Shown here: piece after piece, positions 11,075 through 24,000 of the stretch
Position numbering within the stretch: the first letter of the stretch is position 1
Layout: every line of letters starts with the position of its first letter
DNA from: an uncultured Mycoplasmataceae bacterium
GTDB taxonomy: Bacteria > Bacillota_I > Bacilli_A > Mycoplasmatales > Hepatoplasmataceae
Direction: 5' to 3'
NCBI GenBank assembly: GCA_947313745.1
Contig: CAMZNG010000006.1
Location: 106,753 to 130,752 of the forward strand
DNA length: 24,000 nt
Notes under the pieces: generated by a model
The model's input: only the letters and a program-made list of their open reading frames with translations
What the model was told of the DNA's origin: nothing
The model's database searches: none
Program-made: the position numbers and the translations under genes

Positions 11075-11509
11075 ATGATAGGAAATTACAAAAATAAATT
11101 AGATGAAAAAGGAAGAATAACAATACCTGCTAAGTTTAGAAAAGAACTTGGTGGTTTAATTGTTGTTTCTTACGGATTCGATAATACTCTTGAAATCAGA
11201 ACTTCTAAATCTTTTGAGCTTTGATCTAAAACTCTTAGTGATAAAGGGAACCTCTCTACTTCATCAAGGAAACTATCAAGGTTTATTATGGGTAATTCGT
11301 TTGAAATTACTATTGATAAGGCTGGTAGAGCTTTATTACCGAAAAGACTTATGGAAATGATTAAACTTACAAAAGATGTCATGTTAATTGGTATTGGGGA
11401 TAAAATAGAAGTTCATTCAGAAAAACAATGGAATGATTTAACTTCTAATCCTGAAGAAATGACAAAAACTCTTGAGCAAATGGCTGAAGAATTAAGTAAG
11501 GAAAATTAA
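11075..11509 (+). CDS. mraZ: division/cell wall cluster transcriptional regulator MraZ
   Basis: The ATG at 11075 is in frame with ORF 11288-11509 and joins via TGA (FELWSK). There are two SpoVT-AbrB repeats: DEKGRITIPAKFRKEL and DKAGRALLPKRLMEMI. Confidence 0.9.
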
Positions 11510-11514
11510 TCGTA

Positions 11515-12414
11515 ATGATGAAACATTATTCAGTTCTTGCAAAAGAAACAATAAATAAGTTAAGAATAAAAAGTGATGGAGTTTATGTAGATTGTACATT
11601 AGGACTTGGAGGACATACAAAACTACTGGCAGCAAAAGCTTCCAATGGAAAAGTTATATCATTCGATCAAGATTCGATAGCAATGAAAAAAGCTAAAGAA
11701 AACTTAAAAGAATTCAGTAATATTACCTTTATAAATGATAATTTTTCTAATTTAAGTAAAAGGATCAAGGAATTAGGTATTGAAAAAATAGATGGAATCA
11801 TTTATGATTTAGGAACATCATATTATCAACTTACTGATGAAAAAAGAGGATTTTCTTATCATGGAGAATCAAAACTTGATATGAGAATGAATATAGATCA
11901 AGAGTTTACAGCAATTAATGTAATTAATGATTACAGCGAGGAGGAATTAGCAAGAGTTATGTTTGAATATGGTGATGAACCAAAATCAAGGAGAATCGCC
12001 AAAGCTATAGTAGATTATAGAGAGAGGAGAGAAATACTCTTAAATAAAGAGCTAAATGATATTATAAAATCAGTAAAAGGGTTTGTCAAAGGGAAACATC
12101 CTTCGAAAAATATATTTCAAGCCATTAGGATTGAGGTGAACAACGAAATAGAGGTTATAAAGGAATCTCTTGAACAAGCCATTAATTTATTAAAAAAAAA
12201 TGGAGTTATTGCAGTGATAACGTTCCATTCACTAGAAGACAAAACTGTAAAAGATATATTTTGAAATAAGAAGGAAGATGTTGAGATTACTACAATGGGT
12301 AATAATCACAAATATAAAACTTCAAAAGTTATTTATCCTTCAAAAGAAGAAATAGCTATAAACAAAGCTTCAAGGTCAGGAAAACTAAGAACTTTAGTAA
12401 AACTTATTGATTAA
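11515..12414 (+). CDS. rsmH: 16S rRNA (cytosine1402-N4)-methyltransferase RsmH (MraW)
   Basis: HYSVLAKETI..YVDCTLGLGGHT, DLGTSYYQLTD..RGFSY, FHSLEDKTVK. The ORF continues past TGA 12262-12264 to TAA 12412-12414. Confidence 0.95.
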
Positions 12415-12439
12415 TATACATATTAAAATAGAGAAAAAA

Positions 12440-13576
12440 ATGAAAAATTTATTAGCAATTGAAATAAAGGATAACAAAATAATCGTTACGCTTACTAAGT
12501 ATATAAATGGTAAGCATAATTTAATGTATCATAAATCATATGAATTCATACCTTTACAAGACAAAATTGCTTTTAATGCATCTCTTATCCCAAGGATAAA
12601 GAATGATTTAATAGAATTAGGGTTATTTGAAACGATTAACAAATCAACCTTAACTATTAATACATCAAGAGTTGTGGTCAAAACATTCAAAGAGGAATTT
12701 AAATACGATACTGACTTAGAGTTAGAGAAGGAAAAATTTAAAAACAAGCTAAAAAACAATTGACCTGATTCGGAAATATTAAAACTAGAATTTCCATATA
12801 AAAAATCAGGATTTACAAAAAAAATTATTAATTCTACTGTTGAATCAGTTGAAAGAAGTTATTTAAAAGAAGTTGTTTCAATGTTCAGATTTAATGGTAT
12901 TAATATATCAAAGGTTGTTCCAATGCTTGACGTAATCGAAGAATCAATGAAAGAAAACTCTATTGACAAAGGAATTACATTTTCAGTTCTAGTAGAAGAG
13001 AAATTTACGCAATTAACTACATTTGAAAATGGTTCAATATCTTTTTCAACAAAATGGAAATCAGGACTAAATGATATTTATAAACATATTTCAAAAATTA
13101 TGAATATAAATATAAATGAATCAAAAAAATTATTTAAATTCTTTGGTTCAATACCACCTGAAGATGTTGTGGATAATAAAGTAATCCACACAATTAAACA
13201 TGGTAAAGAAGTTGAAGTCTTTACAAAGAAAGATCTATCAAAATATATAACTGAAAAGGTTAATGAACTATTTTCAAATGTTAAATCAGAATTTCCCTTT
13301 ATCACAGATGATTCAGAAGAAAGAAAAATAATATTTAGTGGAGAAATTAAATCATTAAATGGATTTAAAAAATATGCAAAGAAATCATTTGCAGAAAAAA
13401 ACGTTGAAAAATTCTCAAGTAAATTAATTGGATTAAGCGAAGAAGCAGAATTTGTAACATTAGGAATATTAAACATCATTCAAGATGAAAAAATTAAAAA
13501 AAGGGTAGAAGGAAAACTAGATAAACCTAAAATAAGTGCTATAAACAAATTTATAAGAATGTATAATTATATATAG
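12440..13576 (+). CDS. ftsA: divergent FtsA-like (actin-fold) cell division protein
   Basis: The ATG at 12440 (MKNLLAIEIKDNKIIV) is in frame with 12881-13576 and joins via TGA. It occupies the position between rsmH and ftsZ. There is weak FtsA/PilM-like periodicity (ITFSVLVEEKFTQLTTFENGSISFS.. ESKKLFKFFG) and a C-terminal amphipathic-looking ISAINKFIRMYNYI. The nucleotide-binding motifs look degenerate. Confidence 0.55.
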
Positions 13577-13605
13577 TAATACAAATAAATAGTAAAGGAA
13601 GAAAA

Positions 13606-14811
13606 ATGTTTGATAATTTAAACAATAAAAATAACAACTCTGAAAAAAAGGGCGCAAAAATAAAAGTAATAGGAATTGGTGGGGGTGGATCAAATGCCGT
13701 TAATCAAATTTATATTTCAAAAGAAGTTAGCAATGCTGAATTCTACGTTTTGAATACTGATCATCAAGCTTTAGATTCATCACCAGTACCAAATAAATTA
13801 ACTCTTGGACCTACAATTACAAAAGGTTTAGGAGCAGGTGCTGTTCCTGATGTTGCTAGAGCTGCTGCAGGAGAATCTGAAAAAGAGATTAATGCAATTG
13901 TTCAAGGTTCTGATTTAGTATTCATAACTGCTGGAATGGGTGGAGGTACTGGTTCTGGTGCAGCTCCAGTTGTAGCGAAAGCAGCAAAAGATGCAGGAGC
14001 ATTGGTTGTTGCAATAGTTACTACACCATTTTCATTTGAGGGTGGAAACAGAAGAAAAACTGCAAGAGAATCTTTAGAAAAATTAAGAAGAGAAGTTGAT
14101 TCAATTATTGTTATTTCTAATGATAGACTTGCCGCTGAATTAGGTGGAGTATCATTTTCAAAAGCATTTGAATATGCTGATCTAATTTTAAAACAAGCTG
14201 TAATAACAATAGCAGATATTATTTCAACAACTTCTGTAATTAATCTTGATTTTGCTGATGTTAAAACAGTTTTACAAGGACAAGGACTTGCTTTAATAGG
14301 AACAGGTGATTCTGAAGGTGAGAACGCAGCAATTGATGCTTCTCTAAAAGCAATAAATTCACCAATTCTTGAGTCTTCAATCGAAGGCGCAAAAAAAGCC
14401 ATTGTTATGGTTATGGGTTCTGAAAAATCACTTACTATTGAAAAAGCTCATGAAGCAATACAAACAATTCAAGAGGCAGCAAATTCACCAATAGACATAA
14501 TCTTTGGAGTTAGAATAGATGATGCAATTGGAGATAAAGTGTTAATATCAGTTATTGCAACAGGACTTGAAAAGTTTAAAGCGACAAAAGGAAATGTTCC
14601 TTCAATGTCATCAATATCTTCATCATCTTCATTAACACAAGAAATTAATATAGAAGCATTTAAGAATGATCCAATTGGAGGAATGATTACAGCTGAAACT
14701 GAATTAGATTCTCCAAAAAATAAACCTAGCACTCAAGAAAAAGTATTTGAATCATTATCATTATTAAATGATGATGACGATGATGATGATATTTCAAGTT
14801 TATTAAATTAA
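13606..14811 (+). CDS. ftsZ: cell division GTPase FtsZ
   Basis: An uninterrupted 401-aa ORF. Motifs: KVIGIGGGGSNAVN, the tubulin signature GGGTGSGAAPVVA, and NLDFADVKTV. The acidic C-terminal peptide is DDDDDDDISSLLN. Confidence 0.97.
   Translation: MFDNLNNKNNNSEKKGAKIKVIGIGGGGSNAVNQIYISKEVSNAEFYVLNTDHQALDSSPVPNKLTLGPTITKGLGAGAVPDVARAAAGESEKEINAIVQGSDLVFITAGMGGGTGSGAAPVVAKAAKDAGALVVAIVTTPFSFEGGNRRKTARESLEKLRREVDSIIVISNDRLAAELGGVSFSKAFEYADLILKQAVITIADIISTTSVINLDFADVKTVLQGQGLALIGTGDSEGENAAIDASLKAINSPILESSIEGAKKAIVMVMGSEKSLTIEKAHEAIQTIQEAANSPIDIIFGVRIDDAIGDKVLISVIATGLEKFKATKGNVPSMSSISSSSSLTQEINIEAFKNDPIGGMITAETELDSPKNKPSTQEKVFESLSLLNDDDDDDDISSLLN
14770..14790 (+). repeat. (GAT/GAC)7 trinucleotide tract encoding poly-Asp in the FtsZ C-terminal tail
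   Basis: GATGATGACGATGATGATGAT is in frame and encodes D7. Confidence 0.9.
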
Positions 14812-14826
14812 GAAAAGGAAGTTTAA

Positions 14827-15132
14827 ATGGCAAAAAAAGAAAAAAAACAAATATCAATAATTATTAATACAAAGTCTTCAAGCTTAATTAATATTTCACC
14901 AACAAAGTTTTCTAATTCAAAACCAATAGCCAAAGAATTATTAAAAGGTAATGCATTAATTATTGATTTAAGCAAAATGGAAAAAGTTGATTCAATAAGA
15001 TTGGTTGATTTTATAACAGGAGTTTTATTTACTACTAAAGGAAGTTTTAAAAAAATAGCTCCCAAAACTTATTTGATAGCTCCTTCAAAACATATTTTAG
15101 AGAAATTTTTAACGCAATTCGAAAATATTTAA
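14827..15132 (+). CDS. sepF: cell division protein SepF
   Basis: A 101-aa ORF immediately after ftsZ. SepF/DUF552 pattern: ISPTKFSNSKPIAKELLKGNALIIDLSKMEKVDSIRLVDFITGVLFTTKGSFKKIAPKTYLIAP. Confidence 0.8.
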   Translation: MAKKEKKQISIIINTKSSSLINISPTKFSNSKPIAKELLKGNALIIDLSKMEKVDSIRLVDFITGVLFTTKGSFKKIAPKTYLIAPSKHILEKFLTQFENI

Positions 15133-17835: not shown

Positions 17836-19158
17836 ATGACTAAGAAAAATTTATTATTCAATATATTGTTATTCAATTTATTTTTATTGATAACTCTTTA
17901 TACAAAGAATTGATGGTTAACTCCATTAATTCTTTTTTATTTAGGTTGAATACTATATGAATATGGGTGAAAATCATTAGTATCTATACTTTTTATTATT
18001 TTATTATGTTTTTCTATTAATAATAGCAATAATAAAGAAATAAACCATAAATTAAGCCATAAGGCAAAGATTGTGAAGATTTATAGTTCTAGTATTGTTG
18101 TGAATGAAGATGGTCAAAATTACTATTTAATGGGCATTAAAGAGAATTATATTGTAGGTGATGAAATATCATTTAATGCAATGTATAAAGAAAATGATGA
18201 AATAAGTTCCTTTGATGTATTTTATAAATCAACAAAGTCAAATGGTCTTGCATATGCAAACAATATAAAAGTTATCTCACATAACAAGAACTTAAGAAAT
18301 AATACATATAATTTACTTCTTGAAGATAACTCAACATATTCTGATTTTGCATTAGCAATGCTATATAAAACAAAAACTGATGGAAACGCAACATTATTAG
18401 ATAATATAAACAAATTAGGAATACCTCATTTATTTGTTTTATCAGGGTTTCATATAACGATTTTTTATTTGTTTATTGAAAAGTTGTGTGGGGGAGTCAT
18501 TGTAAATAAAAAAATTGTAGATACAATTTCTTTTGGATCAATTCTTTTCTTTCTATATTTGGTCTATTTCCCTCCCACGGGGATTAGGGCACTATTAACC
18601 ATGGTGATAATAAAGATTGGAAATCTTTCAAAAATAGATTCCCTCTCATTAACAGGGATAATATTTTTTATATTAAATCCTTTTTTGATGATAGGTAATT
18701 CAATGATATTGTCATTTTCTATCACTGCAATGATTTATGAGTCATCATCAAAAAAAGGAAATAGAAATAAAAGAATTCTTAATAAGGTAACCATTTCTTC
18801 TTCAGCATTCTTTTTATCAATACCTACAATATTAACTTGAAATCCTAGTGTAAATTTATTTTCTCCAATACTATCAATTATTTTAACTCCTATTATTTCA
18901 ATATCATATATTATATGTATTTTAATACTACCTTTCCATTATTTATGAGGGTTGTTTTCTACTTATTTTTATCTATTAAATATAATCATTAGTTTACTTC
19001 TTTTTATGTATTTTCCATTAAGTATTGGTATCATTAGTCCGTTTATGCAAATATACTTAGTATCAATAACATTTTTATATATCATTAAACAAAAGGAAAA
19101 TAATTTAATATTATTGAATACATTTTTCATACTTTCTCTTATATTCATTATAATTTAG
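17836..19158 (+). CDS. comEC: ComEC/Rec2-family DNA-internalisation channel protein (short form, 440 aa, no metallo-beta-lactamase domain)
   Basis: The ATG at 17836 is in frame with 18073-18840 and 18952-19158 and joins via TGA. The protein has N-terminal TM helices and an OB-like soluble segment. Its polytopic competence domain contains GIPHLFVLSGFHITIF. It lies directly upstream of holA, as in Firmicutes. Confidence 0.75.
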
Positions 19159-19163
19159 ATAAT

Positions 19164-20150
19164 ATGTTTTATGTAGTAAAAAGCAATAGTAAGTCCCTAA
19201 GGGATAAAATAGTTAAAAAAATTATTAGTTCAAGAAAAATAGAAGATGAGAATGTTTTTGTATTTGATTTTGAAGAAAGCGGAGATTTTGAAAAAGCTTT
19301 TTCAGAATATCTAACATTCAATTTTACTAATGAAAAAAAAATAGTTATTTTAAAAAATGCAAATTTTATCAATGTAGTAAAACCTGATAAATTATATGAG
19401 GAAAGATTTTCAAAATCAATCAATATAAAAAATAAAAATGTTCTTATTTTGGAAGTTGATAAATTTAACAAAACAGGAAAATTGAACAAAAAGTTTAAAA
19501 ATGATTTTGAATTAATTGAAAAAGATTCTCCAAAAAATAATGAGTTAATAAAATTCGTTGAACATTTTTTTACATCAAGAAATATACAAATATCATATGA
19601 ATTATCAAAAAGGATAGTTGAAAAATTAAATGAAGATTTTGACATAATTGTATCAGAAATAAATAAACTTGAATTAATATGCGGTGATAAAATTAATTCT
19701 GAAATTATTGATTCATCAATAATAGATCTATCAAAAGAAAACTTATTTAAGCTTGCAGGTGCAGTTTTAACACTTGATGAAGAAAAAATATCAATATTAA
19801 TCAACAAACTAAGAGTTCAAGGAGAAGAGTTTTATCTTGTTGGAGAAAGATTAGCAATGGAATTTTCAAAAGTTCTAAGATATAAGGTAATTACTGACTT
19901 AGATAAAGGAATAGGGGACTTAGAGTTCCAAAAGCTAACAAACTGAAATATGTGAGGAATAAAGAATTATTCTAATTGAATAAAGAATTGACCTTCTCAA
20001 GAGATTATGTGTAGTTTCTTTTATGATGTAATACTAAGAAAGTCATTCTTTGATATTGTTGAAGGAAATCCTGATGATCCTTTAAGGCTTTTAGAAAAGA
20101 TATTAGTTAATAATGTATTAAAAGTGAAAAGAGGACAATATGAAAGTTAA
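19164..20150 (+). CDS. holA: DNA polymerase III delta subunit
   Basis: ORF 19164-19946 continues through four TGAs to TAA 20148-20150, giving 328 aa. The N-terminal pattern is VFVFDFEESGDFEKAFSEYLTFNFTNEKKIVILKNANFI. comEC-holA-rpsT synteny supports the call. Confidence 0.75.
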
Positions 20151-20337
20151 TAATAAATTATGCAATGTTAATGATTTTGAATACAACAAGAAAACTAAGG
20201 TATTAAAAGTCAAGTATAAAATAGTAGGGGTAAAGGAATACAAAAACTTTACAGAAGAAAATTTTAATTTACTATGCGAGGTAAATAAAAATAAAAAAAC
20301 AATTGGAACAACGTTAAAGAGAGCATTAAAAAAATAA
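20140..20337 (+). CDS. small (65 aa) KTSC-domain-like protein, function unknown
   Basis: The ATG overlaps the holA 3' end by 11 nt. NDFEYNKKTKVLKVKYKIVGVKEYKNFTEENFNLL resembles the KTSC pattern (Y-D/N..t..L.V.F/Y...G...Y.Y.n.....f..L). A strong terminator follows. Confidence 0.4.
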   Translation: MKVNNKLCNVNDFEYNKKTKVLKVKYKIVGVKEYKNFTEENFNLLCEVNKNKKTIGTTLKRALKK

Positions 20338-20368
20338 AACCTTTACATTTAATGTAAAGGTTTTTATT
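20337..20368. terminator. bidirectional Rho-independent terminator between convergent KTSC-like gene and rpsT
   Basis: A ~12-bp stem AAACCTTTACAT / ATGTAAAGGTTT is flanked by an A-run on one side and a T-run on the other. It reads as a terminator on both strands. Confidence 0.8.
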
Positions 20369-20478: not shown

Positions 20479-20820
20479 CTAAGCAACTTCTTTTTTAGGT
20501 GCTGTTGTTTTTTTAACTGCTGGTTTAGGAGTTGGTTTTTCAACTTCTTTTTTAGGTGCTGTTGTTTTTTTAACTGCTGGTCCCTTTGTTGCTTCTATCA
20601 AATGCATTGTAGACTTTAATCTCGCTGCTTTATTTTTGTGAAAGACACCTGAAGTTACTGCTTTATCAATTAATTTAACTGCATTATTAACTAACTCTTC
20701 TGTTTTTAAAGTTTTAGCCTTTTTCATCGCAGTTTTAATTTCTGATTTAAGAGCTTTATTATTCAAGTTTCTTACGTCATCTTGTCTTTTTGATTTATCG
20801 TTTGATTTTATATTTGCCAT
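20479..20820 (-). CDS. rpsT: 30S ribosomal protein S20 with repeat-containing Lys/Pro-rich C-terminal extension
   Basis: MANIKSNDKSKRQ...GVFHKNKAARLKS is the S20 core. The tail is GPAVKKTTAPKKEVEKPTPKPAVKKTTAPKKEVA. The RBS AAGGAA lies on the minus strand. Confidence 0.95.
   Translation of the reverse strand: MANIKSNDKSKRQDDVRNLNNKALKSEIKTAMKKAKTLKTEELVNNAVKLIDKAVTSGVFHKNKAARLKSTMHLIEATKGPAVKKTTAPKKEVEKPTPKPAVKKTTAPKKEVA
20484..20581 (-). repeat. in-frame tandem duplication (41-nt perfect copies, 57-nt period) inside the rpsT 3' end
   Basis: CAACTTCTTTTTTAGGTGCTGTTGTTTTTTTAACTGCTGGT occurs at 20484-20524 and again at 20541-20581. It encodes the repeated peptide PAVKKTTAPKKEV. Confidence 0.95.
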
Positions 20821-20895
20821 TTTTAATTCCTTATATCTTTAATCTTATATATTATATATTAATTATGTATATTTTTGAGTGATATAATTATTAAG

Positions 20896-22791
20896 ATGAT
20901 TTCTCAAAAAAAATTAAATTTAAATAAATATTCATATTTAGATTACCTTAAAGGTGATATTTTTGCTTGGTTAGCATGTAATGAAAATTATGTAATTGCT
21001 TCAAACAAATATGAAGAATTAAAAAAGATAACTCCATGAAGATGAAGAACATATGGAGAGAAAGAAAAAGTTGATCAATTTGAACTACCATCACCAATGA
21101 TTGCCGGTATAGTTGCTAGTGATTGAACAAGATATTGAGCTAAATTTCATTATCCAAGACATCAAATAATTGATATGGATGAAAAGGGTAAAAATATAAA
21201 CAAAGTTAAATTAACAAAAGAATTATTAGATTCAGAAGAGGATTTAGTAATATTTGAAGCTCACTTCAGTTATCATGATTTCAATATTAAAACAGATATT
21301 CTAATAAAGACTGGAAACAAGGTTAAAGTATTAGAAGCAAAAGCAATTACTTCTCCACACAAGATTCATGCAGATGATGTATTTTTTCAAAAAACACTAA
21401 TTAATAAATGTATTCTTAACTCTAATGATTGAAAATTTAATCTTTTAATAATTAATTCAGAATATATCAACAATACAAAACTATCTAAAATAGAAAAGGG
21501 TGGTGCACTCTTTATTGAATCACCAATATTTTTAACAATAAAATCAAAACCTTCTCCTAAAGGTTCAAAATGAACTTTAAGGGAGCAATTGGTTTCAACT
21601 GGTTTTATTAAAGGAAAAATAAATGAAGATTTTAAATATTCTAAATCATTCAACACATTAGAAGCATATTTTAACGAACCAAATCAACTACATACCACAG
21701 ATAACTTTGACAATATATTAGATAAAATAAAGAATATTCAACTTAACGATAATATTCCTAAAGTAAAACTTGAAAAAAGAATGTGAGAGGAAGGGATGAA
21801 ATCTGATTATATGCCTTGAATTTTAAAGATGGCTGGATTACCTGATGAAGATTCTATTTTTGATTTTAAAGGATCTTCAGTAAATTTTAAGAAAAAATTC
21901 GAAATGTATGAGGAAGGCATTTTAACAATAAATGATGCTCCTATCTCATTAATAACTCCAAAAGACATTTCTGAAACAATCAGTTCTCTCGAACAACAAG
22001 ATACTTCCAAGTTTATAGAAAGATTAAAGGGTGGGTTACCATCTAGTTTGAAAGGGTGAAAGTCAGTTATTCAAAAACATTACTTTGATAAAGATGAAGT
22101 ATTCATAAATAAAAAAGGGTTTATTAGTGAGTTGAATAAATATAAAGGTGGGCCAATATACATGTATGATTTTGAAACAGCAGACTTATCAATCCCTATA
22201 ATAGAAGGTGGATGACCATATCAACAAGTCCCATATCAATATTCAATACATATAATAAAAGATGCAGATGATTTTGATTTTGAAACTATGAGAAATATTG
22301 TACATATAGAATGATTGGCAGAAGATATGGAAACCTTTGCTAAAGATTTTTGAAAAAAATTAGCAAATGTTTTTTTAGAACATGGAAGAGGGATATATGT
22401 ATCATGAAATATGAGTTTTGAAAAAACAAGAATAAAAGAAATGGACACATCATTACTTAATGAAGAAGAGCAAAGCATATTATTAGAAGTTCATGATGAA
22501 ACAATTGATTTAAGAGATGCATTTAGTAAACCATATTATTATCACAAAGATATGAAAGGGTCTTCTTCAATAAAATCAGTTGGACCACATTTTGTTAAGG
22601 AAATTGATTATAAGAATTTAAACAACATACAAAAAGGAGATCAATCTTCTGCAGAAGCAAAAAAATGACTTTTAAAAAGAAATGATAAGGAATGGATAAA
22701 GAGTAGGCCAGATATGTTAAAATATTGTGAGTATGATACTTTATTAATGGTAGCAATATTACAAAGAATGAAAGAAAGAGAAATTAAATAA
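20896..22791 (+). CDS. DUF2779-type protein: N-terminal PD-(D/E)xK (RecB/Cas4-like) nuclease fold fused to a C-terminal DEDDy 3'-5' exonuclease-like fold (631 aa)
   Basis: Five same-frame fragments (21175-21432, 21589-21786, 21829-22059, 22411-22668 and unlisted pieces) join via TGA. I checked every codon and found no TAA or TAG before 22789-22791. Motifs: KTDILIK..KVLEAKA..FFQKTL; IYMYDFETADLSIP; WPYQQVPYQYSIH; SWNMSFEKT; KYCEYDTLLM. Confidence 0.7.
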
Positions 22792-22793
22792 TT

Positions 22794-23732
22794 ATGATAA
22801 AAATAGCATTTTTAGGAACTCCATCAATAGGAGCAAAAGCATTAGAATCTTTAATAGATAGTAAACAAATGGAGGTTGAAGTAGTTGTAACTGTTCCAGA
22901 TAGAGCTATAGGTAGATCACACTCTACACTACAACCTTCTCCGGTTGCAAAGACTGCAAAAGAACACAATATCCAAACAATTAAAACTGATTCAATTAAT
23001 AGGGATCTTGAGAAATTAAAATTATTTGAATTTGATTATTTAGTTACATGTGCGTTTGGACAAATTCTTTCTAATGATATTTTGTCATTGCCAAAAAAGA
23101 AAGCAATAAATATCCATGGATCTCTTCTTCCAGAAGGAAGAGGTGGAGCTCCATTACATTGAGCAATAATCAAAGGTAAAACTAAAACTGGAATAACAAT
23201 AATGGAAATGGTTGAAGAAATGGATGCTGGTGACTATTATTCACAATTTGATATAAAGATTAGTAGTTTAGATGATGTGACATCACTTTTTAGTAAGGTT
23301 GGAGATTTAATCTATGAAAAAACTGCTGAAGGAATAATGGAAATAGAAAATGGTAAAGAATCTATAAAACAAAATGAAAAGAAAGTTTCTTATTGATTAA
23401 ACATAAAGAGAAAAGATTCAAAGATTGATTTTAATAATTCAGCAAAAGATATTTGTAATTTAATAAGAGGTCTTGAAAAAGTTCCAGGAGCTTGGGCAAT
23501 GCTTAATGATAAAATAGTTAAAATACATAAAGCAAAAATAGTTAAAGGAACTATTGATTCAGCAACAAGCGAACCAGGAACAATAACAAATATCAGTGAA
23601 AAAGGTATATTTGTCCAAACAAAAGAAGGTGTTATCAATGTAACTGAAGTTACCGTTGAAGGTAGTTCAAGAAATACAATTGATAATTTAATAAATAGTA
23701 ATATTTTTATCAAACATGATAAATTTAAATAA
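22794..23732 (+). CDS. fmt: methionyl-tRNA formyltransferase
   Basis: Fragments 22794-23162, 23202-23396 and 23499-23732 share one frame and join via TGA. Motifs: [36 protein letters not shown]. Confidence 0.95.
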
Positions 23733-24000
23733 TGAAAAAGGAAAATATTAGAAATTTCTCTATAATAGCACATATTGATCATGGTAAATCAACATTAGCA
23801 GATCGTATTTTAGAAATGTCAAATTCAGTATCTAAAAGAGATATGAAAGCACAACTCTTAGACACAATGGATATTGAAAGAGAAAGAGGAATAACAATTA
23901 AGCTTAATGCAGTTCAAGTAAAATATACAAAAGATGGAGAAGAGTATATATTGAATTTAATTGATACTCCTGGGCATGTTGATTTTACTTATGAAGTATC
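23732..24000 (+). CDS. lepA: elongation factor 4 (LepA), 3' partial
   Basis: The ATG overlaps the fmt TAA by 1 nt (TAATG). [25 protein letters not shown] (G1 motif), [14 protein letters not shown]. Confidence 0.95.

Follow-up and report, generated by a model that had tools for sequence, protein, structure and literature searches.

What does a protein with two apparent nuclease centres do in a mollicute genome where its gene lies among genes for translation? The question is raised by a coding sequence on the forward strand (20896..22791) of a 24,000-nucleotide stretch of DNA (the window, positions 1-24000) from an uncultured Mycoplasmataceae bacterium (assembly GCA_947313745.1, contig CAMZNG010000006.1). 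This complete member of the DUF2779 family encodes 631 amino acids followed by a TAA stop when it is read with genetic code table 4, under which 14 TGA codons specify Trp. Based on the conservation, profile and structure comparisons described below, we regard the protein with high confidence as a two-nuclease DUF2779 protein. It is a typical mollicute member of a family whose design is already in print, and what it does in the cell is weighed after the evidence for the two centres.

A sequence-only reading of the window had called the gene intact under table 4, and this is confirmed by 631 sense codons and a lone stop, TAA, at 22789-22791; translation of 20896-22791 with table 11 meets 14 internal stops, every one of them TGA. 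The ATG at 20896 is supported by alignment of the N terminus with 29 homologues, in which MxxxKKLNLNKY is shared. The window has ∼26% G+C throughout, and each neighbouring gene likewise requires TGA to be read as Trp, which marks the source as a mollicute. An identical protein (P0001, 100%) is present in public data, as is a relative of 77% identity, with further relatives in a Mycoplasmataceae metagenome-assembled genome (MAG; 51% identity), Ca. Tyloplasma litorale (41%), and Ca. Hepatoplasma vulgare (38%). The protein has 46 close homologues.

Membership in the family rests on a Pfam match to DUF2779 (PF11074) that covers residues 422-558 and the full model (1-126) with 104.1 bits against a gathering cut-off of 23.3 (E 8.5e-30). 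The NCBIfam model for the UU173 family of Ureaplasma and Mycoplasma (NF045869) gives 111.4 bits over residues 79-621, below its curated cut-off of 225, so the window protein is related to the UU173 subfamily without being a member of it and represents a different, Hepatoplasma/Tyloplasma-like branch. When a mollicute-clade profile of 599 positions was searched against 1.84 billion cluster representatives (50%-identity clusters), 10,950 representatives passed E<=1e-3, of which 3,624 also passed E<=1e-30. Among the 10,950, the best 150 are typically ∼490-500 residues long, and most cover nearly the whole 599-position profile. The N-terminal nuclease, linker, and DUF2779 domain of the window protein are collinear with family members over their full length, and the collinearity of the best 150 shows that the two-domain fusion is the norm of the family. 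Its taxa include Bacteroidota, Ignavibacteria, Clostridia, Campylobacterota, Patescibacteria, and Spiroplasma, so that it spans several phyla with free-living bacteria among them. On phages we found 6 partial matches in 50,697 records, and on plasmids 33 in 72,556; this near absence from phages and rarity on plasmids fit a cellular housekeeping gene.

The nature of the two halves emerges from 92 diverse DUF2779 members, which were scanned singly against Pfam and aligned for residue counts. All 92 match DUF2779, 43 also match Cas_Cas4 (PF01930, best E 1.3e-8), and 38 match RNase_H_2 (PF13482, best E 7.9e-8). These matches, together with the conservation of both catalytic sets, support the proposal of the sequence-only reading that the protein is a fusion, of DUF2779 type, between a PD-(D/E)xK fold and a DEDDy fold. 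The motifs quoted in that reading are all present at the positions it implied, and their key residues are invariant or nearly so among the 92 relatives.

The first half, residues 1-290 (20896..21765, forward strand, as are all features within the gene), is a predicted RecB/Cas4-type PD-(D/E)xK nuclease domain, an assignment that draws on the secondary structure of the model, its Foldseek neighbours, and the Cas_Cas4 matches of relatives. Motif II is KTDILIK (residues 132-138, 21289..21309), in which the putative metal-binding D134 is conserved in 92/92 sequences, and motif III is VLEAKA (residues 145-150, 21328..21345), in which E147 and K149 of the E147-x-K149 element are each found in 91/92. 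A helix with the sequence DDVFFQKT (21376..21399; FFQKTL is residues 163-168) occupies the region of RecB-family motif IV and supplies D161 and Q165, both present in 92/92. Tyr does not stand at +4 in this motif (QKTLI), the family consensus being Q-Y-Y-V-L. Other conserved N-terminal residues are K11 (92/92) and E121 (86/92). An hhalign comparison of the 92-sequence profile with the nuclease domain of Escherichia coli RecB was not significant (E 0.26), and the register of this non-significant alignment places D134, E147, and K149 on RecB D1067, D1080, and K1082. An N-terminal motif of the window protein may also resemble the S-x-S...C-P/x-K/R-x-h-W/F motif of Cas4.

The second half, residues 420-631 (22153..22788), has the features of a DEDDy 3'-5' exonuclease domain of the DnaQ/PolB-exo-like, RNase H fold type, as judged from the DUF2779 match, the model, Foldseek, and the relatives. 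Exo I is YMYDFETADLSIP (residues 422-434, 22159..22197), with D425 and E427 both in 92/92, and the quoted motif WPYQQVPYQYSIH is confirmed at residues 440-452. Exo II is the variant WNMSFEKT (residues 504-511, 22405..22428), or N505-x2-F508-E509, in which Glu replaces the usual Asp in 92/92 and N505 is kept in 71/92. Exo III is KYCEYDT (residues 609-615, 22720..22740), where Y610-x3-D614 is represented by Y610 in 91/92 and D614 in 92/92. All three Exo motifs are thus conserved in orthologues, as are Q448 (92/92), D538 (91/92), and K560 (92/92). An hhalign comparison of the 92-sequence profile with E. coli PolB found nothing.

The sequence-only reading had made conservation of the catalytic residues among orthologues one of its checks, and D134, D161, Q165, D425, E427, E509, and D614 are each present in all 92 relatives. 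In a separate alignment of 30 mollicute-clade sequences (A1), eleven catalytic or structural residues are invariant at identities to the window protein that go down to 22%. That both catalytic sets are invariant or nearly so in these 30 and 92 sequences argues for two active centres under selection. Taken together, the DUF2779 match, the motifs, and the conservation in the 92 relatives amount to a resemblance far beyond chance.

Between the two domains lies a mostly helical linker (residues 291-419, 21766..22152, from the secondary structure of the model). Its segment SIFDF...EEGILTINDAPIS (21853-21948) matches the family block S(I/V)F..L......K...LY..GI....D(I/A)P, at which weak matches to the DNA-polymerase-lambda fingers domain (DNA_pol_lambd_f) occur in 3/92 relatives and also in P0158. 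From the block and these matches, the segment is a possible helix-hairpin-helix DNA-binding element.

An AlphaFold2 model of the full protein, built from a 30-sequence alignment, is confident (mean predicted local distance difference test (pLDDT) score 91, predicted template modelling (pTM) score 0.86), and its secondary structure fits both nuclease folds, in line with the structural check proposed earlier. In the N-terminal domain, strands over residues 117-149, a helix at 156-172, and a strand at 180-186 form the alpha-beta-beta-beta-alpha-beta core of PD-(D/E)xK enzymes. D134 and E147-x-K149 lie on adjacent strands (E135-139 and E142-149 in the model), and the invariant D161 and Q165 lie on the next helix. 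Residues 421-630 follow the order beta1-beta2-beta3-alphaA-beta4-alphaB of DnaQ-like exonucleases, in which Exo I is on beta1, a helix at 506-514 begins with Exo II, and Exo III falls within the long helix at the C terminus. Foldseek searches of the Protein Data Bank (PDB) with the full model list 3'hExo first (probability 0.97, E 0.046), then RNase T, TREX1, PARN, and ERI3, along with the exonuclease domains of PolB, Pol alpha, and the herpes simplex virus (HSV) polymerase and a few PD-(D/E)xK enzymes, none of them at E<=1e-3. The N-terminal domain predicted separately (pLDDT 88) retrieves Card1 (E 2.3e-3), RecE, MGME1, Cas4 SSO0001 (4ic1), Cas4-Cas1 (7mi4), Pcal_0546 (4r5q), Can2, HincII, and cap-snatching endonucleases, again with none at E<=1e-3. 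The top of each list therefore comes from the expected superfamilies.

Mollicute members differ from the rest of the family at the Fe-S cluster site. In 85-86 of the 92 relatives, four Cys columns form the pattern C...C-X6-C-X5-C, the arrangement by which Cas4/AddB-type nucleases bind a [4Fe-4S] cluster. In the window protein, the first of these ligands is replaced by G20 (20953..20955; Cys in 86/92) and the CX6CX5C part by M296, S303, and I309 (21781..21822; Cys in 85-86/92). All four Cys are missing in 22/22 proteins of the UGA=Trp mollicute clade. The same clade has three insertions that are absent from canonical ∼490-residue proteins: residues 34-60 (20995..21075), residues 220-268 (21553..21699), which overlap the lone low-confidence stretch of the model (residues 211-250, pLDDT 60-69), and, in the linker, residues 360-387 (21973..22056). 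The loss of all four Cas4-type Fe-S cysteines and the gain of three insertions by the UGA=Trp mollicute clade are new in this study.

The two-domain design itself is not new. Majorek et al. (2014) assigned PF11074 to the 3'-5' exonuclease clade within the RNase H-like superfamily and noted its co-occurrence with DUF83, a PD-(D/E)xK domain (PMC3985635), and a 2026 mSphere paper described MMSYN1_0389, quasi-essential in the minimal cell JCVI-syn3.0, as joining a Cas4-like nuclease to a DEDD nuclease (PMC13621843). For MMSYN1_0389, HHpred gave Cas4 7MID (E 2e-6) and MrfB 8UN9 (E 5e-7); its D/E/K and DEDD residues are conserved, Tyr replaces His, the Fe-S cysteines are partly lost, and no polar insertion signal was reported (PMC13621843). 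These publications anticipate the architecture that the sequence-only reading had put forward as a candidate for new biology, and that claim falls. By its published description, MMSYN1_0389 shares with the window protein the Pfam family, the two-domain plan, the D/E-x-K set, the DEDD set with Tyr for His, degraded Fe-S cysteines, a locus number next to that of fmt (0390), and the lack of biochemistry; it differs in keeping two Fe-S Cys where the window protein has lost all four.

Comparison with other systems places the window protein further. Canonical DUF2779 proteins of ∼490-500 residues (for example P0036-P0038) are collinear with it over both domains and have the same invariant residues, but they keep the C...CX6CX5C pattern and have neither the three insertions nor the linkage to fmt. 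Cas4 proteins (SSO0001, 4IC1; Pcal_0546, 4R5Q; Geobacter sulfurreducens Cas4-Cas1, 7MID/7MI4) and the RecB and AddB nucleases share the D...ExK residues and, by the model, a PD-(D/E)xK core followed by a helix with Q, whereas the window protein has no Fe-S ligands, cas1/cas2, CRISPR context, or helicase in cis, is fused to a second nuclease, and misses PF01930. It is thus not a Cas4 proper: the four-Cys [4Fe-4S] set is absent, there is no cas gene among the neighbours checked, and there is no CRISPR-like array in the window. With the DEDDy/DEDDh exonucleases (PolB proofreading, PF13482 RNase_H_2 YprB/COG3359, MrfB 8UN9, 3'hExo, RNase T) it shares Exo I D-x-E, Exo II N-x2-F-(acid), an Exo III Y-x3-D that falls in a long helix at the C terminus, and a predicted RNase H-like order of the beta-sheet; it differs from them in having Glu rather than Asp in Exo II, the extra near-invariant D538, the family block PYQQxP(Y/F)Q(Y/F)SxH, and no direct sequence match. 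COG2251/TM0106-type RecB-family nucleases (Cas4-like DUF83 plus PF13482) likewise pair a DUF83-type PD-(D/E)xK domain with an RNase H-like exonuclease (PMC3985635), but they often carry ATPase or helicase modules and the window protein has none, so unwinding would need a separate protein. By Pfam, no superfamily 1 (SF1) helicase or ATPase of the AddAB/RecBCD type was found in the protein or in its neighbours S20, Fmt, LepA, HolA, and ComEC.

Analysis of the surrounding genes shows that the DUF2779 gene heads a compact set of translation genes. Upstream lies rpsT (S20; 20479..20820, reverse strand, Pfam), separated from it by a 75-bp AT-rich divergent intergenic region (20821..20895) that has TGATATAAT ∼10 nt before the ATG and, read directly, no obvious Shine-Dalgarno sequence. 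Downstream, fmt (Met-tRNA formyltransferase; 22794..23732, forward strand, Pfam) has its ATG 2 nt past the DUF2779 stop, and the 5' part of lepA (23732..24000, forward strand) has an ATG that overlaps the fmt stop by 1 nt (TAATG). From this spacing and overlap, DUF2779, fmt, and lepA are very probably transcribed together from the 75-bp interval that they share with rpsT; the sequence-only reading had likewise proposed an operon of the three genes. A promoter scan gave 28 sites against 27.8 expected and is uninformative in DNA of 26% GC.

Linkage to fmt is fixed in the mollicute loci examined. In 13/13 mollicute loci (the window, Ca. Tyloplasma, Ca. Hepatoplasma, 2 Mycoplasmatales MAGs, 4 Spiroplasma, and 4 further relatives), fmt lies directly downstream of the DUF2779 gene; most of these loci also have a divergent rpsT upstream, and about half have lepA after fmt. 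An 80-locus survey of neighbours found no fmt linkage in relatives that use table 11 (Anaeroplasma, Erysipelotrichaceae, Bacilli) or in other phyla; outside mollicutes, 7 of the 80 loci is the most that any neighbour family reaches, and every locus in the fmt cluster comes from a mollicute. The fixed DUF2779-fmt(-lepA) unit is the other new result of this study, and with it comes the caution that transposon "essentiality" of the nuclease gene could be partly polar. In Mycoplasma mycoides, fmt is locus 0390, beside 0389, and is quasi-essential in syn3A (PMC6609329); since fmt of the window begins 2 nt past the nuclease stop, an insertion into the nuclease gene may be polar.

Two results on mutants bear on the role of the protein, namely the quasi-essentiality of MMSYN1_0389 and a screen in Mycoplasma bovis. 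In the latter, a transposon mutant of the DUF2779 gene (Mbov_0804) grew normally in axenic culture and poorly with host cells; it was one of six such mutants, the five others being in holA, dnaB, recD, gdpP, and nrnA (PMC7373297).

Based on these observations, we consider a housekeeping nuclease that processes DNA ends or flaps in repair, recombination, or replication restart the leading account of the protein, with a probability of roughly 0.4-0.5. Under this account, a single polypeptide would hold two independent metal-dependent nuclease centres and act as a functional DUF2779 member. The RecB/Cas4-type centre in residues 1-290, with D134, E147-x-K149, D161, and Q165, would have dispensed with the [4Fe-4S] cluster kept by ∼93% of the family, and it would cut or degrade 5'-ended single strands. 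Residues 291-419 would form a helical linker in which the probable helix-hairpin-helix element binds the DNA backbone, and residues 420-631 would form a PolB-exo/RNase_H_2-type DEDDy exonuclease that trims 3' ends by means of D425, E427, E509, and D614, with Y610 as general base. By processing DNA ends, flaps, or gaps, the two centres would contribute to repair, recombination, or the restart of replication in a genome presumably poor in other nucleases, and the protein would be made from a transcript that begins in the promoter region divergent from rpsT, with the DUF2779 gene as first gene of the unit. DNA is the predicted substrate because Cas4/RecB-type domains, like PolB/RNase_H_2-type DEDDy domains, are as a rule DNases (PMC3985635, PMC13621843), because the linker may carry a helix-hairpin-helix, and because the M. 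bovis screen also yielded replication and repair mutants.

Several results weigh against this account. By itself, the window protein has no Pfam match to Cas_Cas4, to PDDEXK (E<=1), or to any DEDD family, so that the link to both nuclease superfamilies is transitive, through relatives; the profile check suggested in the sequence-only reading thus gave the strong DUF2779 match but not a direct match to a nuclease family. Searches of PDB sequences with the single protein and two family profiles gave no chain match (matches at E 0.5-1 to DegV and YTM1 were dismissed as noise), and with Foldseek neither the full model nor the N-terminal domain found a PDB match that reached E 0.001, which makes the structural evidence qualitative. 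Activity of the Sulfolobus solfataricus Cas4 requires the Fe-S cluster (PMC13621843) whose ligands are missing here. The conserved partners rpsT, fmt, and lepA are translation genes, not repair genes, and part of the quasi-essentiality in syn3.0, like part of the M. bovis phenotype, could stem from polarity on the quasi-essential fmt (PMC6609329). As the sequence-only reading had stated, we found no biochemistry in the papers retrieved that mention the family, and hence no enzymatic assay of any DUF2779 protein; the catalytic activity of both centres, the substrate (DNA rather than RNA), the opposite polarity, and the cellular role are what we infer.

A more specific form of the DNA-end account casts the Fe-S-free mollicute DUF2779 protein as the missing nuclease for DNA-end resection and processing in minimal genomes, a stand-in for AddAB/RecBCD/RecJ that lacks a helicase and acts on both strand polarities, perhaps together with a RecD2-type helicase that shares the M. 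bovis phenotype. We hold this form to be doubtful; if true, a role in resection rather than immunity would explain why MMSYN1_0389 is quasi-essential in JCVI-syn3.0.

One different account is a nuclease for nucleotide salvage or imported DNA, in which both centres degrade foreign or damaged DNA (entering, for example, via ComEC) to mononucleotides and so feed an organism without de novo nucleotide synthesis. The locus seems to invite it, as ComEC (440 residues, 17836-19158, Pfam) ends 1.74 kb before the DUF2779 start, with HolA (19164-20150, Pfam) between them, and Pfam finds in it a Competence domain only: neither a metallo-beta-lactamase nuclease domain nor an OB/DUF4131 domain at the N terminus is matched at E<=0.01. 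These facts agree with the sequence-only reading, which had also placed the gene in the slot of gpr-spoIIP and taken both positions as functional hints. We take the Bacillus subtilis order comEC-holA-rpsT ... lepA to be ancestral Firmicute synteny that exists without a DUF2779 gene. In the mollicute loci, neither the distance of comEC and holA nor the side on which they lie is constant, and the Spiroplasma loci contain no ComEC-like neighbour cluster, whereas the DUF2779-fmt pair is fixed; proximity to ComEC is therefore not functional evidence. The ComEC link and the replacement of gpr-spoIIP were rejected on this ground, and the arrangement is best read as inherited Firmicute synteny holding an inserted DUF2779-fmt pair, rather than as functional coupling. 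Salvage would also fit tdk-thyA-folA, which lies just upstream in the locus of one relative, and the M. bovis screen, in which the DUF2779 mutant was recovered along with a nanoRNase mutant that is rescued by nucleotides; that rescue, however, was shown for the nrnA locus mutant and not for the DUF2779 mutant (PMC7373297). In addition, the model has no evident signal peptide or membrane segment, and DUF2779 is widespread in free-living bacteria that synthesise nucleotides. A salvage function is, on balance, unlikely.

The same neighbourhood could be explained if either centre, or both, processed the ends of tRNA or rRNA or took part in mRNA decay, which would tie the protein to translation and account for its linkage to fmt, lepA, and rpsT. 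Besides the constant fmt neighbour in mollicutes and the frequent rpsT and lepA, this possibility draws on the RNases 3'hExo, RNase T, PARN, and ERI3 among the best Foldseek matches and on PD-(D/E)xK matches that cut RNA (Card1, Can2, cap-snatching endonucleases). However, the linkage is confined to UGA=Trp mollicutes in a family found far beyond them, reduced-genome operons often mix unrelated functions, and both domain types are, as noted, typically DNases. The sole apparent DUF2779-Fmt fusion (P0089, 956 residues, L089:694-3564, junction near residue 640), which might have spoken for a functional link, was rejected as a probable homopolymer (sequencing or assembly) artefact. It occurs on a single 3.8-kb metagenomic contig with a run of A8 at the junction; A9 would give a separate fmt ATG (MNSKKKYKLLFLGTP), a normal N terminus, and a nuclease stop. 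Because A9 would turn the open reading frame back into two separate, overlapping genes like those of other mollicutes, the fusion cannot be used as evidence of a link, and we judge an RNA-processing function improbable.

A defence function, that of a "solo Cas4"-like anti-invader enzyme as suggested by a heading of the 2026 syn3.0 paper (PMC13621843), has less to recommend it. The N-terminal domain is Cas4-related, from the Pfam matches of relatives and the published description (PMC13621843), and outside mollicutes a WYL regulator adjoins the gene in some Clostridia (7/80 loci), with TIR, PDDEXK_4, and McrB-like AAA_5 genes near it in a few loci. Against this, a PADLOC scan of the window protein found nothing, the neighbours in the window are housekeeping genes only, the gene holds a fixed syntenic position in mollicutes rather than sitting in a variable island, most loci have no defence neighbours, and a minimal cell grown in the absence of phages retains the gene, which is quasi-essential there (PMC13621843). 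We consider immunity quite improbable.

That the protein itself matters little, the gene being kept or scored (quasi-)essential mainly as a carrier of promoter and translational coupling for fmt-lepA, would suit the lack of intergenic promoter space before fmt, the lepA/fmt overlap, and the quasi-essentiality of 0390 beside 0389 (PMC6609329), but it is very improbable indeed given the eleven residues invariant at down to 22% identity, a full-length protein conserved across phyla where fmt is not adjacent, and the absence of a polar insertion signal for 0389 (PMC13621843).

The leading account, DNA-end and flap processing, concerns one of the larger bacterial families that have a confident enzymatic prediction and no experiment (∼11,000 clusters at 50% identity), one member of which is among the unexplained quasi-essential genes of JCVI-syn3.0. 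Both centres are invariant in extremely reduced genomes and so are probably both used. The mollicute proteins are natural Fe-S-free versions, for which aerobic purification should be easier and with which the need for the cluster in Cas4-type catalysis could be probed. As the gene is tied to fmt, and often to lepA, across mollicutes, essentiality calls need a non-polar control before the nuclease is credited. What this study adds to the published design is modest: the Fe-S loss, the insertions, the DUF2779-fmt(-lepA) unit, and the dismissal of the ComEC link and of the apparent fusion. The family merits experiment, and the window adds no new handle beyond a convenient Fe-S-free orthologue.

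The survey of loci also yielded observations on genes near DUF2779 in other genomes. In GCA_001641225.1, tdk-thyA-folA (thymidine kinase, thymidylate synthase, and dihydrofolate reductase; L085:1512-3433) lies between holA and a DUF2779-fmt-lepA-obg block. The ComEC-like proteins of relatives are similar in length to that of the window (401-453 residues). Directly upstream of the DUF2779 gene, 4 Spiroplasma loci and 1 Mycoplasmatales MAG encode a conserved Lys/Glu-rich protein of ∼200 residues that begins with a membrane anchor and matches no Pfam family (L008:4122-4730, L025:4041-4643, L038:3041-3649, L058:2411-3061, L065:3041-3649), which is absent from the window; locus L088 has a 203-residue gene without a Pfam match at the same position. 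The regulators that adjoin the gene in 7/80 loci have WYL and WCX domains and come mostly from Clostridia/Lachnospiraceae where a name is given (L015:6287-7378, L062:6342-7328, L070:5637-6887, L032:7056-8033, and others), and 3 of the loci also have TIR-domain and PDDEXK_4 genes nearby. Such adjacency may reflect damage- or phage-responsive regulation in free-living bacteria.

Elsewhere in the window, no Rfam family reaches its gathering score and there is no tRNA gene; the same Rfam scan found neither a T-box nor a ribosomal-protein leader ahead of pheS, pheT, ileS, or rpsT. The S20 protein has 113 residues, compared with 76-80 in Ca. Tyloplasma and Ca. Hepatoplasma. Its extra length, at the 3' end of rpsT (20479-20600), is a Lys/Pro/Ala/Thr-rich C-terminal tail with ..KPAVKKTTAPKKEV.. 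twice, encoded by about three copies of a 30-nt tandem repeat (20494-20581). Between the convergent holA and rpsT lies a perfect hairpin with a 13-bp stem (20336-20364, AAAACCTTTACAT/ATGTAAAGGTTTT) and T-runs on both strands, which looks like a bidirectional intrinsic terminator; terminator-like sites number 3, against 0.7 expected. At 11075-15132, the window holds the remnant of a division and cell-wall cluster (mraZ-like, rsmH-like, ftsA-like, ftsZ, and sepF, with ileS next) in an organism that presumably lacks a wall; SepF alone is confirmed by Pfam, and the remaining genes of the cluster were read from their translations.

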